Source of the DNA: Octopus sinensis
Taxonomy: Eukaryota
Direction: 5' to 3'
NCBI RefSeq assembly: GCF_006345805.1
Contig: NC_043022.1
Location: 9,362,001-9,426,000 of the forward strand
Length of the DNA: 64,000 bases
Shown here: piece by piece, positions 19,668 through 59,301 of the stretch
Numbering within the stretch: position 1 is the stretch's first letter
How the letters are laid out: every line of letters begins with the position of its first letter
Translations under genes and position numbers: made by a program
The notes under the pieces: model-generated
What the model was told of the DNA's origin: nothing
What the model saw: the letters and a program-made list of their open reading frames with translations, nothing else
Databases searched by the model: none

Positions 19668-19890
19668 TAATAAGAGAAAATAAACAGAGAGAGAATAAAA
19701 AAACTTGTGGATATGTGTGTGTATATATATAGGCCCGAAACATATGTACCGCTGAATCCTTGGCATCTGTCTAATAAAGGCCCAAAACATATGTACCGCT
19801 GAATCCTTGGCATCATGTTTTTATTTTGATCAATTTACTCCACCACCTACACCACCAAACGGTATACACAGGTGCTTATAATTACCCCGA

Positions 19891-24934: not shown

Positions 24935-26190
24935 GTAAAATATATTCTTTTACTTGTTTTAGTCATTTGACTGCAGCCATGCTGGAGCACTGCCTTAAAG
25001 GGTTTTGGTCAAAGAAATCAACCCTAGGATCTATTCTTTGTAAGCCTAGTGTTTATTCTATTGGACTCTTTTGCTGAACTGCTAAGTTACAGGGACATAA
25101 ACACACCAGCATCGGTTGTCAAACAATGGCAGGGGTAACATACACATAGACATATATATATAATATATATACTCTTTTACTTGTTTCAGTCATTTGGCTG
25201 CGGCCATGCTGGAGCACCGCCTTTAGCCGAGCAAATCGACCCTGGGACTTATTCTTTGTAAGCCTAGTACTTATTCTATCGGTCTCCTTTGTCGAACCGC
25301 TAAGTTACGGGGACGTAAACACACCAGCATCAGTTGTCAAGCGATGTTGGGGGAACAAACACAGACACACAAACATGTACACACACATACATATATAAGA
25401 CGGGCTTCTTTCAGTTTCCATCTACCAAATCCACTCACAAGGCTTTGGTCAGCTCGAGGCTATAGTCGAAGACACTTGCCCAAAGTGTCACGCAGTGGGA
25501 CTGAACCCGGAACTATGTGGTTGGTAAGCAAGCTACTTACCACACAGCCACTCCTGCGCCTACATATATATATATATGTATATATACGATGGGCTTTCAG
25601 TTTCCATCTACCAAATCCACTCACAAGGTTTTGGTCGGCTTGAGGCTATAATAGAAGACACTTATCCAAGGGACCATGCAGTGGGATTGAACCTGGAACC
25701 ATGTGTGTGTGTGTGTGTGTGTAAAAAAATGTGTACCATATCTGATGTCATGTAAGATATGCTTTTTGTCTCAAAAAATCATCCCAGGTCCTGTATGCGA
25801 AGTTGGGCCTCCCATAAGGTTTACTGTGGAGGACGGGTGAGTGAGCAGAAGGGAGAGGGAGTGACATCATGAAGGGACCAGAAGAGTGAAGGATAACAAG
25901 AGGTCATTCAGGAAGCAACAGGTTAAAGATGGCCTCCTGCTTATGGGGTCTGTGGCAGGGTCAAGTGTGCAGGGAGTGGTTGTAGTGTAATAGCTGTGAG
26001 GCTGGTTTTCCTCGTGATCTGACACATGGAGGGATTGCCGCCAATTGTAATTTGAGGTAAGAGCAACTTTAATTCGTGCCTTACAATAACATCTACTGCA
26101 CGAAAGACTCTTGAAAATGCACTGCTAAAATTGGGGTGGGTCTAATATGCTTGCGTATATCTATTATGTCATCAAATACAGTGTGTATGC

Positions 26191-26223
<33 letters not shown>

Positions 26224-26750
26224 TAAGGGAGCAAGTGGGATGTATATATGAAGAGTGATTTAGAGAGAAAGAGAGCAATTCTTACGTTCTAACATCACTT
26301 TTATTGTTCTAAATTTGTTTGTATGTCAACCTGATTGTGTGGGTGTGTATATATGAGGGTACAACTGTTTAGACAACATGTGTATATATATACATCACGT
26401 GATCACGTGACCGACCAGACCATCAGATGTTGTTACACATCGCTGGTCACAATGCGCTTCACATTGTTTTTTTTTAGCTTTTGAATGACGCCACCCCGCT
26501 GGCTAAGCGAGCAGGCCAACAGAAGAAAGAGAGAAAGAGCGATGAAAGAGTACATCAGGGATCACCACCCCCTGCCGGAGCCTCGTGGAGCTTTTAGGTG
26601 TTTTCGCTCAATAAACACACACAACGCCCGGTCTGGGAATCGAAACTGCAATCCTATGACCGCGAGTCCGCTGCCCTAACCACTGGGCCATTGCGCCTCC
26701 ATATATATATACATATCATATAAAATCAAAAACAGAACACAAAGGATGTA

Positions 26751-26841
26751 GCGGTACACGTGTTTCAAGCTTTATAAACGACCTGTTCTTTCATCAGCGT
26801 ATAATAGATATAAAAGATGGTTTAAAGCTCTCTTCAGCCGC
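26751..26841 (-). ncRNA. Type I hammerhead ribozyme, apparently intact
   Basis: GCGG-CTGAAGA-GAGCTTTA(long insert)TAAAGCTT-GAA-AC-ACGT-GT-A-CCGC: full CUGANGA/GAAA/NUH core, stem I GCGG/CCGC, 8-bp stem II, palindromic stem III; predicted cleavage between 26755 and 26754. Confidence 0.8.
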
Positions 26842-28346
26842 ATGCATTGTTATTCCAAAAAGTTACATCACACTATGAAAAATATGAAAAGTAAATATAG
26901 TATTATCCATAATAATAGGTATATCATATCTCCCTGAGAAAGTGTATTTGTAAAATTTCACAACCAAATAGGCGTGTAGGGTATCATTGGATTTCGAAAA
27001 TATATATATATATATATATATATGAGGATGTATATGTATATGTATGAATGTGTGTGTGTGTATTTCCATAATTCTGTAGGTTTTTTTTTACCCGATTCTA
27101 TGTTTCCACTTGATACCAGATGTGTCTTGCTTTTGATTATCCCTGAATAATACCAGTAGGGTGAGGCAAGACTATGAGTTGTGGTGTTGTATACAGGACC
27201 CTCTGAAGGTACTTGCAACTCAGACAGTTACCCAAGATGTCATGTGTTTGGAGGTACCATATTATATCATGGGATTGCACCTAGAAAGTTACCCTCCAAG
27301 GTACATGTCCAGGTAAGGTTGTTTTTATGGAACACCAGCAATCACCCATGCATACAAGCCGCCCCTCTCCAAGCCACCAGTGTTGTCCAAGGGAAAAATA
27401 AAGGCCGATACAGCTTGGCACCAGCTGAGTGAACTGGAGCAACATGAAATAAAATGTCTTGCTCAAGAACATGACACACAACCCGGTACGAGAATCAAAC
27501 TCACAACTCCGTGCTTGTAAGCCCTACACACTAACCACTGAGCCGTGTGTGATAAGGAGTGTTCTGCACAGTTTCTGTTAAACAAAGCAAACTTCACTCA
27601 CAAGTCATTGGCCATCCATCGGTCAGCTATAGCAGAAGACACTTCCCACATTTGCTTACTTGCTACTACACACTCACATCCAGCTCAAACCCAAAGCCAC
27701 ATGCTTAACATGTGCTTATTATTAATCTCACTTGTTATATTTATCTAAGTAACGACACATTCTAGACACACTAAAAGCAATACTTAATAAATTATCGCTG
27801 TCCACATATAATCTTCTGAATAACTTGGTTATGCTGTCCCAGTTTTTTACTTCTTATTTTTATTCTAACATCAGCAGTTTTGCATGTCTTAACATATTTA
27901 GGACTGCAGACATTAAAAATATTGCTGGAAATAATTATAACTTTTATTTTTGCTCTCTCACTTGCTTCAGTCATTAGATTGCAGCCATGCTGGGGCATTC
28001 CCTTTGAGTGGTTTAGAGCAGTGGTTCTCAACTCTTTTTTGCTTATGGTCCTTTTTCTGATACCTATTTTACTCTACTGGACCCGTATAGTTAGTCAATG
28101 TTTAAAAAACAACTTTTCGGTGATTTGTTGCCGTTATTGTTGTTAAAATAGGTGTTTTTGCTTTACATATCATCATCATCATCGTTTAACGTCCACATTC
28201 TATGCTAGCATGGGTTGGACGAATGACTGAGAGCTAGTGAACCAGATGGCTGCACCAGGCTTCAATCTTGATCTGGCAGAGTTTCTACAGCTGGATGCCC
28301 TTCCTAACGCCAACCACTCCAAGTGTAGTGGGTGCTTTTACGTGCC

Positions 28347-28388
<42 letters not shown>

Positions 28389-28583
28389 GTGGGGTAATGG
28401 TCTCAATAAGACCCAAAGGTGTCAGGTAATGCTGAGTAAGTGCTATGGACAGACTATAGTTAAGCTCCAGGTTCGGTGGTTATGCGAATGCGGAGTCCAA
28501 CGTAGTTCATATATAAAAAATATTTTCAGAATGAGATAAAAATCCAAGGCTCTGAAAGATTTTAGAACATTTATAGATAGAAG

Positions 28584-28631
28584 GTCTTACAGCTGTTTCC
28601 AGGATATTTTATATATCCCTTCATCGGAAAC
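28584..28631 (-). ncRNA. Minimal type I hammerhead motif with one core change
   Basis: GTTT-CCGATGA-A-GGGATAT(ATAAA)ATATCCT-G-GAA-AC-AGCT-GT-A-AGAC: stems I-III present, palindromic ACAGCTGT, GUA triplet; U4 replaced by C. Confidence 0.7.
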
Positions 28632-29535
28632 GATGTGAGAAAATGGTTAAGCAATAGTTATTTTGGATAAGATATGAAATAGAGAGTGAAGTGGAGGAAT
28701 GAAAATAGATGTGAGATATGCAGGGATATTGCATCTGTAGATCCATTATTTAGGCAGAATGGTATACATATAAGATTCCAGTACCTTGTAAGTTCCAATA
28801 GTATTTGAAATTGGTCATTCCAAGTATAGAGTTTGTACACGGTGTTAGTGTTATCGAGGGTTTTATTTAAAGTGACTTAAAAGTAGGGAATGTATTTGCA
28901 AGGCCAAATCGAAAACAGGAAGAGAGGAACAAAGAAAAGAAAAAAGAAAAGCGGGGAGAGAGATAATAAAGAGATGAAGAGAGGGTAAGTGGACTGGTTA
29001 GTGGTCAGTCAAGATAAATTGGTAGAAGGAATGGGATGGTGAGGATGATAGAAAGATATGAGAATGTAAAAAGATGATAGGGTAAGGATTAAAGGAGTAT
29101 CAGATAGAAGGAATGGCATTCTACCTGGGCGGCTCTTGTCAAACTATCCAACCCATGCCAGCATGGGATGTAGATGTTAAATGATGATGATGATGCCCTT
29201 CCTAACACCAACCACCCCACAGAGTGAACTGAGTGCTTTTTATATGGCACAAGCACAGGTGAGATCCGTTTTGGCATGGTTTTTATACAGCTTTATCCCT
29301 TCCAAATGCCAACCACTTCACAATGTGGACTGGATGCTTTTTACGTGGCACCAGCACCAACAGGGTCACCAAGTAATTTTGCAAGACAAGGAATTTTGAG
29401 AGAGGTGGGGTCATTGGAGGAGGTGATCTTCTATCAGATGATGAAAGATTAGAGTGTGAAAAAGAGGCAGAAATATGTTTATATTGTTGTTGTTGTTGTC
29501 GTAAATAACTTGATGATAATAATTTATATTTACAG

Positions 29536-56155: not shown

Positions 56156-57010
56156 TCAAACGAGACAAGGAAATATCTCTGGCAACAAGCAGTCATCCAT
56201 GGGATCCATGTCATTAAAAGGGATTGTCATCAACTGATCCTGGTAAGGGGACCCAGGATTGCTAGGCTCACTATTTATACCAGAGTCACTGGCAGAGTCA
56301 CTGAATTGATCCATATAAGTTGTTTCCATGGGAATTTTCATTTCGCTTTCTGTAGAGTCACAGGATTTCCTCAGTTTTGTATCAAGCATAAGGGAGGTGA
56401 TGGGGTTGTTTTCTTCAGCGAGATCAGAAGTATCAAGATGCTCTAAATCTGCCAGTTGTAGAATATCATATGTTTCTTTGCCTTCTCGGCTGCCAACCGA
56501 CTCTTGCAGGATATCTTGCAGCAAAGCCAGGGGGTCAAAATCATAACTACCATCATCGCTGTCGCTGCTGCTGTTGTCGTTATCAACACAGTTGTCAGTG
56601 ATGTCATCAATGTCTTTGATATCATCATATTCTTGTGTAGCAATGTTAGAAATGTCAGGAACAACTACATTGGAGCTGACTGTTGGCACTATTGTTTCCT
56701 CATCTACAAACACACCTTCATCAGCAGCATCACATGGCAAGATATCACAGACTTCCATCAGGGACTTTGGTCCACTGTCAGAAGCTGGAGACAGAGACGG
56801 GGAAGGCTTGACATAGAAATGCTCAGATTTTATAAGTTCATTGAGGGAGTCCAGTTGTGTTGTTGCGGTCCCCACCATGGAATTGGAATCCTCTTTTGCG
56901 AGAAGCTCAGCAGCTCCAAAACACGAAGAATCTGTAACTGATTGTGAAGAGATTGGGTTTTTAGATTCTGAATTGCAGACTTCATCCAGAAATTTCCACA
57001 ACTTGCTAGG
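56156..57010 (-). CDS. XBP1: XBP1 last exon, spliced-form (XBP1s) transactivation domain
   Basis: Poly-T TTCCAG acceptor; acidic frame with DSLNELIKSEHFYVKP (human EAINELIRFDHIYTKP) and terminal EIFPCLV* (human ELFPQLISV); in frame only after removal of the 20-nt IRE1 intron. Confidence 0.93.
   Translation of the reverse strand, partial: PSKLWKFLDEVCNSESKNPISSQSVTDSSCFGAAELLAKEDSNSMVGTATTQLDSLNELIKSEHFYVKPSPSLSPASDSGPKSLMEVCDILPCDAADEGVFVDEETIVPTVSSNVVVPDISNIATQEYDDIKDIDDITDNCVDNDNSSSDSDDGSYDFDPLALLQDILQESVGSREGKETYDILQLADLEHLDTSDLAEENNPITSLMLDTKLRKSCDSTESEMKIPMETTYMDQFSDSASDSGINSEPSNPGSPYQDQLMTIPFNDMDPMDDCLLPEIFPCLV
56830..57010 (-). CDS. XBP1: XBP1 last exon, unspliced-form (XBP1u) overlapping frame
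   Basis: AA|C junction gives NLASCGNFW...IPWWGPQQHNWTPSMNL*, matching the human HR2 end (SLISCWAFW) and pausing peptide (QWGRHQPSWKPLMN). Confidence 0.88.
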
Positions 57011-58720
57011 CTGGAAAAAAAAAGAAGAAAAATAACAATTAAACTTAGCCAAAAGATCGTTATCAGGTTATTATAGACTGTTTTAGAAATCGAAAAATAA
57101 ACAATCACAACATCAAAATCTCTAAGCATGATCAATCTAAGACAATAAGAGACATTACATTTGACAGAGTAATCAGATTGCTAAAGGGTTAATCAAGTCT
57201 TTGGAGTCTACAAAACATATCAACCCACATCAAGTGTTTAACTCACTAAAAAACATTTTTTTGCCATCATATTGAGGTCTCTTTTCTCCATGCTGGCAGG
57301 AGTTGGACAAAAACTTATTTTCAAGTAGAGTATTTTATCTCTTTTGCATTCGGATAACTCACTCAAACGTAATGCTTATTCATTCTTTAATCACATTATT
57401 TTGAATTAATCATGCATTATCTTGTATCTAAGAGATTTTCATTATGTCATTGCTTATATTTAGAATGACACTGCAGGATAGGTGTGAGAGGCCAGATCTG
57501 ACCTCTCTGAACACAAAACTGGCAGAATATTTAGGCTGGACACGGCCAGTTTAACCCTTTTGCATTTAAAATGGCCACATCCGGCCCAAATATTTTACCT
57601 GTAATATGTCCCCTACCACCACGTGGCAAACAGTGTTGGTGTGTTTACATCCCTGTAACTTAGCAGTTCAGCAAAAGAGCTTGACAGAGTAAGTACTAGG
57701 CACAAAAAAATAAATCTTGGGGTCAATTCAAGGCGGTGCCCCAGCATGGCCACAGTCAAATGACTGAAATAAGTAAAGGATGAAAGATAAAAGAAATACT
57801 GGAGTTGATTTCTTTGATTAAAACCTTTCAAAGCAGTGCCCCAGCATGGCCACAGTCCAGTATTTAAACTTGCCATATCCAACCTGCTTTTTTGTTCAAA
57901 CTGGCTACATCAGGCTTCTCACACCTACCCCACAATGTCACTCTAAAAATAATGACATTGAAATCTTGAAGCTATGAGATAATGCATGGTAAATTCAGCC
58001 AAGTGAAACTCTAGTTGTGGCCGATGATGGTATCCTGTAACTGTCACCTGTGCTGATGGCACGTAAAAAACACCTTTTGAGCATTGGGCCTCACAACGAC
58101 AATGTGGCCAATGCCGGTGGCACATAAAAAGCACTTTTAGAGCGTTGGGCCTCACGGACGCATGTGGTTGATGCCGGTGGCACGTAAAATGCACCTTTTG
58201 AGTGTGGGTCTCACGGAGGCATGTGGCTGATGCCGGTGGCACATAAAAAGCACTTTTAGAGCGTTGGGCCTCACGGACGCATGTGGTTGATCCCAGTGGC
58301 ACGTAAAAAGCACCTTTCAAGTGTTGGGCCTCACAAGGGCAATGACAAATGATAAAGACCTTTGGTTATATACCGTGATGGAGAAGACCCATCAAGCCAA
58401 GTGAAATTGTAGTCATGGTAGATACTGGTGTCATGCAACTGGCCCCTGTGCTGATGGGACATAAAAGCATCAATTACACTCTCAGAGTGGTTGGTGTTAG
58501 GAAGGGCATCCAGCTGTAGAAACCCTGCCAGATCAGACTGGAGGCTGGTGGTGCAGTCCATCAGCTTACCAGCCCTGGTCAAACTGTCTAACCCATGCCA
58601 GCATGGAAAACGGACGTTAAATGATGATGATGTGAATAAATAAGCATTACATTTGACAGAGTAATTTGAATGCTTAAGGGCTAAAGATTAAAAAGACAAA
58701 AGACGAAAGATTAAACTTAC

Positions 58721-59218
58721 TTCATCATTACTGCCAAAAAGCTGCAACGTATCATCAAGTGAAACAGCATCAAAATGTGTTTCTGCGGCAGAGAAACAAT
58801 TGGTGCTGCGGACCGTAGGCATTTTGATTCTGTCTTCACTGGCGATGATAAGCTTTCACTCTTGCAGAGACTACTGTTAGCAATGCTGTTGTTGTTGTTG
58901 CTGCTGTAGTTAGATGTGCTGGATGATAATGATGATGATGATGATAATGGTGATGATGTGGATGTTGTTCTTGACGATGTTGTCGTAGTTGTTGCTGTGG
59001 ACAAGTGGTCGCATTCTCCGTTATTTAACTGGCCCAACCTCTCGCGGAGCTCAGCATTCTCGCAGATCAGTGTCTTGGTCTTTTTCTGTAGCATCTGGTT
59101 CTGCTGAAGCAATTTTTTGTTTTCAGTCTGTAGTTTATCGATGGCTATTTCCATGTCAGACATCTGTGCTTTCTTCCGATCACGGGCTGTTTGGGCTGCA
59201 ACTCTGTTCTTTAATTTC
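58721..59218 (-). CDS. XBP1: XBP1 bZIP exon containing the IRE1 splice site
   Basis: TTTTAG acceptor at 59220-59219, GTAAGT donor at 58720; (R)KLKNRVAAQTARDRKKAQM basic region and leucine zipper (human KLKNRVAAQTARDRKKARM). Exon 1 not found within the window. Confidence 0.96.
58789..58808 (-). other. XBP1: 20-nt unconventional (IRE1/RtcB) intron
   Basis: CCG^CAGC and CTG^CCGC 7-nt loops (CNG^CNGN) on stems GGT/ACC and TGTTTCT/AGAAACA; removing CAGCACCAATTGTTTCTCTG shifts into the XBP1s frame. Confidence 0.93.
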
Positions 59219-59301
59219 CTAAAAGATAAAAATATTAATTAGAAATATTGAATTTCTAAGCGTCTCAAAGAGACATGAGTGGTGGTGGAGCGATAGAGTG
59301 G

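Follow-up and report, generated by a model that had tools for sequence, protein, structure and literature searches.

The hammerhead motif on the minus strand of the window (the whole 64-kb stretch of Octopus sinensis DNA analysed here) at 26841-26751 belongs to a Penelope-like element (PLE) and is not a host ribozyme. The explanation that we consider probable as a whole is that the motif lies in a truncated, likely inert pseudo-LTR of the Hydra clade, that the hammerhead of this element acts only as a dimer, and that its long stem II houses a poly(A) signal. The single copy in the window is of little importance in itself; the ribozyme variant and its link to the poly(A) signal carry the interest.

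Hammerhead motif in the window

The window sequence showed a type I hammerhead with CUGANGA, GAAA, the UH position, three stems and both ends joined in stem I. Stem I is formed by GCGG (26838-26841) and CCGC (26751-26754), both present in the sequence and in the descriptor scan. The core CUGAAGA (C3-A9) was located at 26831-26837 and the core GAAA (G12-A15.1) at 26763-26766, with a spacing of 64 nt between them. The proximal helix of stem II has 8 bp with a closing pair G10.1-U11.1; its 5' strand (26823-26830) was supported by sequence, scan and fold and its 3' strand (26767-26774) by sequence and scan. Between the two strands is an extension of 48 nt (26775-26822) which forms an imperfect rod with a distal hairpin in the folds and in the comparison of copies. 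Stem III is the palindrome ACACGUGU (26756-26763), for which duplex and dimer fold energies predicted intermolecular pairing. By the hammerhead consensus, cleavage is predicted after the A of GUA (26755), at 26754-26755. All of the parts listed in an earlier note on this DNA, from GCGG/CCGC and CUGAAGA to the G-U-closed stem II, the 48-nt insert, GAAA and GUA, were thereby recovered on the minus strand. The core was also intact as described there, with no difference from the commonest letters of the other copies.

The motif was the sole match of the descriptor scan on both strands of the 64-kb window, and 100 block shuffles of the window produced a mean of 0.02 loose matches and 0 strict matches. 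The 106-nt window monomer folded no better than its shuffles (z 0.28), while the stem II region had a z of -1.5 in the window copy and -3.6 in a typical family-A copy. The check by hammerhead models that had been proposed failed, as the Rfam search with the motif gave nothing at gathering thresholds and no hammerhead family up to E 10, a miss that is likely due to the 48-nt insert.

Two further claims on the insert held in part. The pairing described within it is part of the minimum-energy fold of the window copy but is specific to this copy. A second CUGAUGA does exist at 26797-26791 but is created by the base change at 26791, one of two private changes in the stem II extension (26798 and 26791), and visual inspection found it in 2 of the 64 distinct sequences of family A. 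A nested second hammerhead in the insert was ruled out, since this CUGAUGA is one private base change.

Window copy and host intron

The hammerhead lies in a copy of a Hydra-clade Penelope-like element, here named family A, of which 5' truncation has left the 3' end (part of the pseudo-LTR). The copy occupies 26701-27001 on the minus strand and is 84-95% identical to other genomic copies. This copy of 300 bp ends approximately 40 nt past the cut site and is without the 70-nt tail found in other copies. A (TA)n run was present at the truncated end (27000-27023, no strand assigned) and TA-rich sequence was also present at the other end (26701-26721). These flanking runs are likely the insertion target; Hydra elements are described as inserting in (TA)n (PMC8557442).

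The copy is located within an intron of PPM1E on the plus strand (24935-29535; exon map by tblastn, GT/AG ends). The last exon of the host gene had 98% and 91% identity to proteins annotated as protein phosphatase 1E in two Octopus species, so the antisense position in a PPM1E/F intron proposed in the earlier note stands, with relatives named PPM1E. As PPM1E is on the plus strand, its pre-mRNA carries the reverse complement of the hammerhead. In addition, the element was the only family-A copy in the 64-kb window and had no partner copy there. The window copy therefore likely does nothing in the intron, being on the opposite strand to the PPM1E pre-mRNA and partnerless in the window. Overall, it is almost certainly an ordinary remnant fragment of a Hydra-type pseudo-LTR, and very likely inert.

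Other features were observed around the copy. A repeat at 26480-26700 (minus strand), presumably SINE-like with a tRNA-like head, adjoins its 3' end. A tiny 5'-truncated copy of the sister family B was found at 19731-19880 (plus strand, sense to PPM1E); it has stem III and the tail, is without the CUGAAGA half and has an internal stretch duplicated. At 28480-29100 (minus strand, core at 28627) is a further 3' end, likely from a different Penelope-like family. Its short hammerhead has a palindromic stem III ACAGCUGU and a core that is CCGAUGA at this position and CUGAUGA in another locus (L139). Finally, a bZIP gene (Pfam bZIP_1), which resembles XBP1, was found at 56156-59238 (minus strand); it is on the same strand as the hammerhead and ends approximately 29 kb upstream of it.

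Family A copies in the genome

A genome search with family A produced 43 matches at 88-100% identity, with 40 of 931 candidates scored, and a 24-mer spanning parts of stem II, the core and stem III had 250 exact matches in the genome compared to 0 for the control. The search for family copies suggested in the earlier note thus returned hundreds of dispersed copies. The copies share a common 3' end and have variable 5' ends, several of them being arranged as inverted pairs or partial tandems. The 70-nt tail was present in 14 of the first 30 loci and absent in 16, the window copy being among the latter. All aligned copies extended past the cut site, and the stems varied little within the family.

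Compared to the commonest letters of 35 aligned copies, the window copy differed at 12 of 301 positions (4%). Its changes numbered 0 in 42 core and stem positions and 11 in 243 insert and flank positions. The absence of core and stem changes is unremarkable, since approximately 1.9 would be expected and an intact copy had been selected to begin with; core and stems were equally intact in 9 of 34 other full-motif copies. This comparison of core and stems with insert and flanks did not show selection on the window copy.

Parent element and Hydra clade assignment

Two upstream walks from family-A copies crossed a long non-coding region of low complexity and reached a GIY-YIG endonuclease and a reverse transcriptase (RT), which bears out the Penelope-like origin that had been proposed. 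The element has RT followed by GIY-YIG in one frame and the hammerhead in the pseudo-LTR, in family A in broken copies. Partial tandems, 5' inversions and an optional tail corresponding to the 5' start of the element were also present. One near-full family-A copy (G000:C28, L088-L089), interrupted by stops and frameshifts, starts with the tail sequence; none of the fetched family-A copies had an open frame. Among those fetched, an open frame of 842 aa was found in sister family B and frames of up to 1124 aa in families C-E.

The endonuclease has a CxC-X5-C linker, CxxC and CxH and no CCHH, which are the features given for the Hydra clade in PMC8557442, and insertion in (TA)n was likewise found. 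The RT has DKT in family B, DKI in two family-A copies and R-W-A in place of the RWK of Hydra. Pfam and PDB sequence searches recognised neither the RT nor the endonuclease, and the assignment of the RT to Hydra was made on motifs compared by eye with the Hydra proteins in the supplement of PMC8557442.

In the RT protein search of the genome the best 150 of 11085 candidates were listed. Further protein searches led to families F and G, and a motif search led to a family H of the Hydra-1_Obim type, which had 15 exact motif matches in the genome and an endonuclease 23-33% identical to that of family B. In an RT tree made by a quick method from genome copies and database homologs only, with no published Hydra RTs, A+B and C/D/E were sisters, G was a separate branch, both grouped with Argonauta proteins, and F was outside.

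A long Asn-rich low-complexity stretch of variable length was observed between the RT thumb and the endonuclease (L088:6200-7100, L130, L131), resulting in frames of 842-1124 aa compared to approximately 700 aa in most homologs. Hydra-type elements were abundant, with more than 11000 first-look candidates in each of three RT searches. Copies of family F were 98-100% identical in the RT, with frames of up to 766 aa, and families B and D have copies with identical motifs and open frames. The Hydra-type elements of the octopus genome are apparently young.

Long stem II, covariation and dimer fold

The spacing from CUGANGA to GAAA was 51-65 nt in 22 of 23 representatives of families A-E and G and 36 nt in the other, in a hand-picked set from which one further representative was left unparsed. 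The stem II arms of these families had fold z values from -1.1 to -4.6. The spacing was 10 nt in family F and 23 nt in family H. Metagenome relatives, found by an alignment-based scan after a scan with a single protein found none, had spacings of 10-25 nt in all 53 loci with a motif out of 78; the other 25 (many on contigs that end at the frame) were left out of the counts as having no motif in the scan. For the 25 published Hydra families, loop 2 is given as 3-10 nt in PMC8557442. The long stem II is thus a conserved, family-wide trait of most Hydra families sampled in this genome.

Ten C/D/E sequences showed pairing in 93.8% of cells and double changes in 6 of 22 pairs. None of 500 shuffles had as many cells paired, a test in which related sequences can beat shuffles, and slid controls reached 31-51%. 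Twelve sequences of group G showed changes on both sides in 7 of 18 predicted pairs. RNAalifold did not recover stems I and II from the C/D/E alignment because this alignment was not structure-aware. The structure of the distal hairpin was conserved in C/D/E and in G. In sequence, the stem II arms of A/B, C/D/E and G resembled each other no more than shuffles (z under 2). The stem III palindromes of the families were ACACGUGU, ACAUAUGU, ACGAUCGU and ACAAUUGU, with palindromy kept through four sequences. Stem covariation, one of the checks named in the earlier note, was therefore found as double changes in the sister families C/D/E and G, with the stem III palindromes maintained.

Stem III had an energy of 0.0 as monomer and about -10 kcal/mol as duplex (-10.3 for the window copy). 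The best fold of the window-copy dimer was a double hammerhead at -42.1 kcal/mol compared to 2 × -15.2 kcal/mol. The double-hammerhead pattern, with the core free and stem III intermolecular, came out as the best dimer fold for 9 of 18 representatives with flanks of 4 or 10 nt and for 4 of 18 with flanks of 20 nt, at which the window copy fails. The proposed dimer type, with a palindromic stem III, agrees with these values: the monomer is unstable while duplex and dimer folds are favourable. On these predicted folds, the element family quite likely cleaves as dimers. The literature describes the G-U closing pair of stem II also in Penelope-13_HM (PMC8557442) and even U-U as tolerated at the base of stem II (PMC3088659). 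PLE hammerheads are described as cleaving poorly in vitro (PMC4209133), with one that needed a protein for cleavage and for which cleavage was dispensable for insertion in vitro (PMC11167929).

Poly(A)-type hexamer and cut site

The metagenome relatives were grouped into 30 clusters with 29 testable representatives, and 11 of these had an AAUAAA or AUUAAA starting between -1 and +10 relative to the cut. The count expected from each locus's own flanks was 0.51 and 0 of 200000 simulations reached 11, for an interval of positions that was chosen after seeing the data. In one representative (L207) the cut was placed 3 nt off, which did not affect the count. The 23 other sense intervals of 12 nt within 145 nt gave at most 1.0 each and the antisense strand at -1 to +10 gave 0. 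The strict hexamer was absent at these positions in the remaining 18 of 29 clusters. By eye, the hexamer was at the cut in 3 of 25 published Hydra families, and CAUAAA or UAUAAA in several more (PMC8557442). Many of the metagenome Hydra-like loci (L196-L273) also had a common GCTC motif 35-55 nt past the cut, which possibly marks the 5' start or tail of the element.

In octopus families A-E the hexamer was inside the long stem II in all 16 parsed representatives, which stand for two deep lineages only, at -22/-23 or -30 to -32. The 3' side of the arm carried UAUAAA, AAUAAA or AUUAAA, with 16-17 nt (A, B) or 24-26 nt (C-E) from the end of the hexamer to the cut and a U/GU-rich tract past the cut. 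Family A had UAUAAA, a weaker poly(A) signal than the AAUAAA type, at -22 in 5 of 5 representatives, and family B had AAUAAA at -22/-23 in 4 of 4. In the window copy the UAUAAA is at 26771-26776 (minus strand) with 16 nt from its end to the cut, a position where a poly(A) signal function may be proposed, and the U/GU-rich tract at 26720-26743 (minus strand) begins 11 nt past the cut and would fit a downstream poly(A) element. No AAUAAA, AUUAAA, UAUAAA or AGUAAA was found within 45 nt past the cut in A-E. In group G, AGUAAA or AAUAAA was at +3 to +6 in 7 of 7 representatives, outside the long arm, and in families F and H the hexamer was 30-31 nt past the cut.

At poly(A) sites a hexamer generally lies 10-30 nt before the cleavage point and a U/GU-rich tract follows, and the A-E arms have this spacing. 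A top-three hexamer occurred somewhere in 21-42% of shuffled family-A inserts. As the arms of A/B and C/D/E are no more alike than shuffles, the hexamer has outlasted its surroundings, though in two deep lineages only. The signal does not explain the length of the arm, because in group G stem II is long as well but does not contain the hexamer. The predicted folds did not mask the hexamer consistently, with 0 to 5 of its 6 bases paired among the representatives. Overall, the positional tie between hexamer and cut is a well-supported pattern, and from it we infer that ribozyme and poly(A) site may be coupled. The stem II hexamer is reasonably likely to be the poly(A) signal of the element.

In contigs of runs guessed to be RNA (four runs for family A) the family sequence was present and the cut site was bridged. 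Among the matches listed from these contigs, with repeats skipped, no poly(A) loose ends were found on the family A and D pseudo-LTRs. Genomic copies ending in 12 A past the motif numbered 0 (control 6), and such copies need not exist. In a separate observation on the family D stem II (L134:5308-5316), three contigs of one run (X5) differed from the genomic sequence of the hexamer region only by clustered A-to-G changes that would destroy AAUAAA. This is a weak hint of A-to-I editing of the family D hexamer, from one run with no matched DNA.

Comparison with known systems

Minimal dimer-type hammerheads of metazoan PLEs were reportedly described by Lunse et al. in 2017. The octopus elements share with the Hydra clade, including Hydra-1_Obim (Craig et al. 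2021, PMC8557442), the C-terminal GIY-YIG, a DKT-type motif in family B, (TA)n targets and a type I hammerhead in the pseudo-LTR. They differ in the Asn-rich stretch, the long 3' non-coding region and the 51-65 nt in stem II; in addition, published Hydra elements are generally below 3 kb, whereas the octopus units are 4.3-5.3 kb (D, B) or more. The minimal metazoan PLE hammerheads (Cervera and de la Pena 2014, PMC4209133) are likewise type I with a short stem I, a palindromic stem III and predicted dimers, and are mostly single motifs from truncated copies, as here. However, their helix II has at most 7-8 bp and a short loop, in contrast to the octopus rod of 50-65 nt with internal loops. The published hammerhead descriptors have spacers of 7-17 nt, shorter than the octopus stem II.

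Two other ribozymes with an enlarged stem or insertion are comparable. The discontinuous mammalian Clec2 hammerhead (PMC6765202) likewise has a large insertion and cuts beside a poly(A) signal, which is removed; it is encoded in a host 3' UTR and its insertion spans several hundred nt, whereas the octopus hammerhead is in a mobile element, has a dimer-type core and in A-E has the signal before the cut. The Selaginella PLE-X hammerheads (PMC8557442) are likewise Penelope-like with a loop 2 of about 30-35 nt, but come from a plant, an endonuclease-less element and another clade, are marked non-canonical and are shown in that text with no palindromic dimer stem III. No literature was found on long-stem-II hammerheads in octopus Penelope elements or on a poly(A) signal tied to a PLE hammerhead, in a search with most subscription papers and Repbase outside its scope; the supplements of PMC4209133 and bioRxiv 10.64898/2026.07.22.740005 may list such motifs. 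The accessible part of PMC2377424 does not mention polyadenylation or AATAAA. Both the ribozyme variant and its poly(A) link appear to be novel.

Alternative explanations

The alternative with the most weight, which we regard as unlikely, accepts the same element and dimer ribozyme but holds that the long stem II is unrelated to polyadenylation, being a protein-binding, tertiary-contact or tolerated arm, with the hexamer near the ribozyme only since both are at the 3' end of a short pseudo-LTR. It would accommodate the long arm of group G with the hexamer outside, the hexamers of families F and H well past the cut, the metagenome clusters with none at the cut and the conserved distal hairpin of C/D/E and G, and the protein-assisted PLE hammerhead of PMC11167929 also agrees with it. 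Against this alternative, the hexamer is concentrated in the 12-nt interval at the cut instead of being distributed along the pseudo-LTR, and it is kept inside the otherwise unrelated arms of A/B and C/D/E.

Two other readings concern what the window copy is. The earlier note had suggested a possibly active ribozyme in the intron, and an active or host-used ribozyme on the PPM1E or an antisense transcript could draw on the unchanged core and stems and on the family sequence in the four runs guessed to be RNA. This suggestion is very improbable: the copy is one of hundreds of dispersed ones, chosen for an intactness that is close to expectation and equalled in 9 of 34 others, it is antisense to the pre-mRNA and partnerless in the window, and its own changes weaken the arm. 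A non-LTR retrozyme, in which short non-coding units in tandem contain a type I hammerhead and give rise to circular RNA, has even less to recommend it and is largely excluded. The window copy is indeed 300 bp and non-coding, and retrozymes are proposed to derive from PLE pseudo-LTRs (bioRxiv 10.64898/2026.07.22.740005), but the copies have a common 3' end and variable 5' ends that extend into the RT-endonuclease frame. Among the loci fetched, the tandems were long partial ones and arrays of short units did not occur, and the contig matches listed contained no back-joint, which is a weak point against it. The remnant of a Hydra-type pseudo-LTR is thus the preferred reading of the window copy.

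Proposed mechanism and significance

Under the Hydra-clade explanation, two copies in a tandem transcript would pair via stem III and swap stem I strands, and each would cut the other after GUA. Transcripts that start in the upstream pseudo-LTR of a tandem, as known for Drosophila Penelope (PMC6765202), would meet the ribozyme and the poly(A) signal twice. In most Hydra-like elements with the hexamer, this is located at or just past the cut, where cutting would split it or part it from the upstream RNA. In A-E, the position of the hexamer in stem II would direct the poly(A) machinery to roughly the bond that the ribozyme cuts, and cleavage within an upstream pseudo-LTR would free the downstream ORF RNA of that signal. 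All copies examined run past the cut, so only read-through RNA that has escaped cutting can serve as the template of new insertions; such copies would be expected from internal initiation in the tail (PMC11167929). Cutting, polyadenylation and read-through may thus be alternative fates decided at the hammerhead structure.

That the ribozyme regulates the use of the poly(A) signal is a tentative idea. An equally speculative extension is that the hammerhead is half of a 3'-end switch, its cut being tied to the poly(A) signal, and that A-E have relocated this signal to the long stem II, with the ribozyme and the poly(A) machinery then in competition for bonds that nearly coincide. Dimer cutting, polyadenylation and read-through might then sort transcripts into mRNA and insertion template, and the balance might shift with A-to-I editing of the hexamer.

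Neither Rfam nor the published descriptors detect long-stem-II hammerheads, so that abundant and apparently young families are invisible to standard ribozyme scans. The octopus families also offer a natural pair of arrangements, with the signal after the cut in G and inside stem II in A-E. Finally, the role of hammerheads in Penelope-like elements is stated as unclear in PMC8557442, and a tie between cut site and poly(A) signal would give PLE hammerheads a concrete, testable role.
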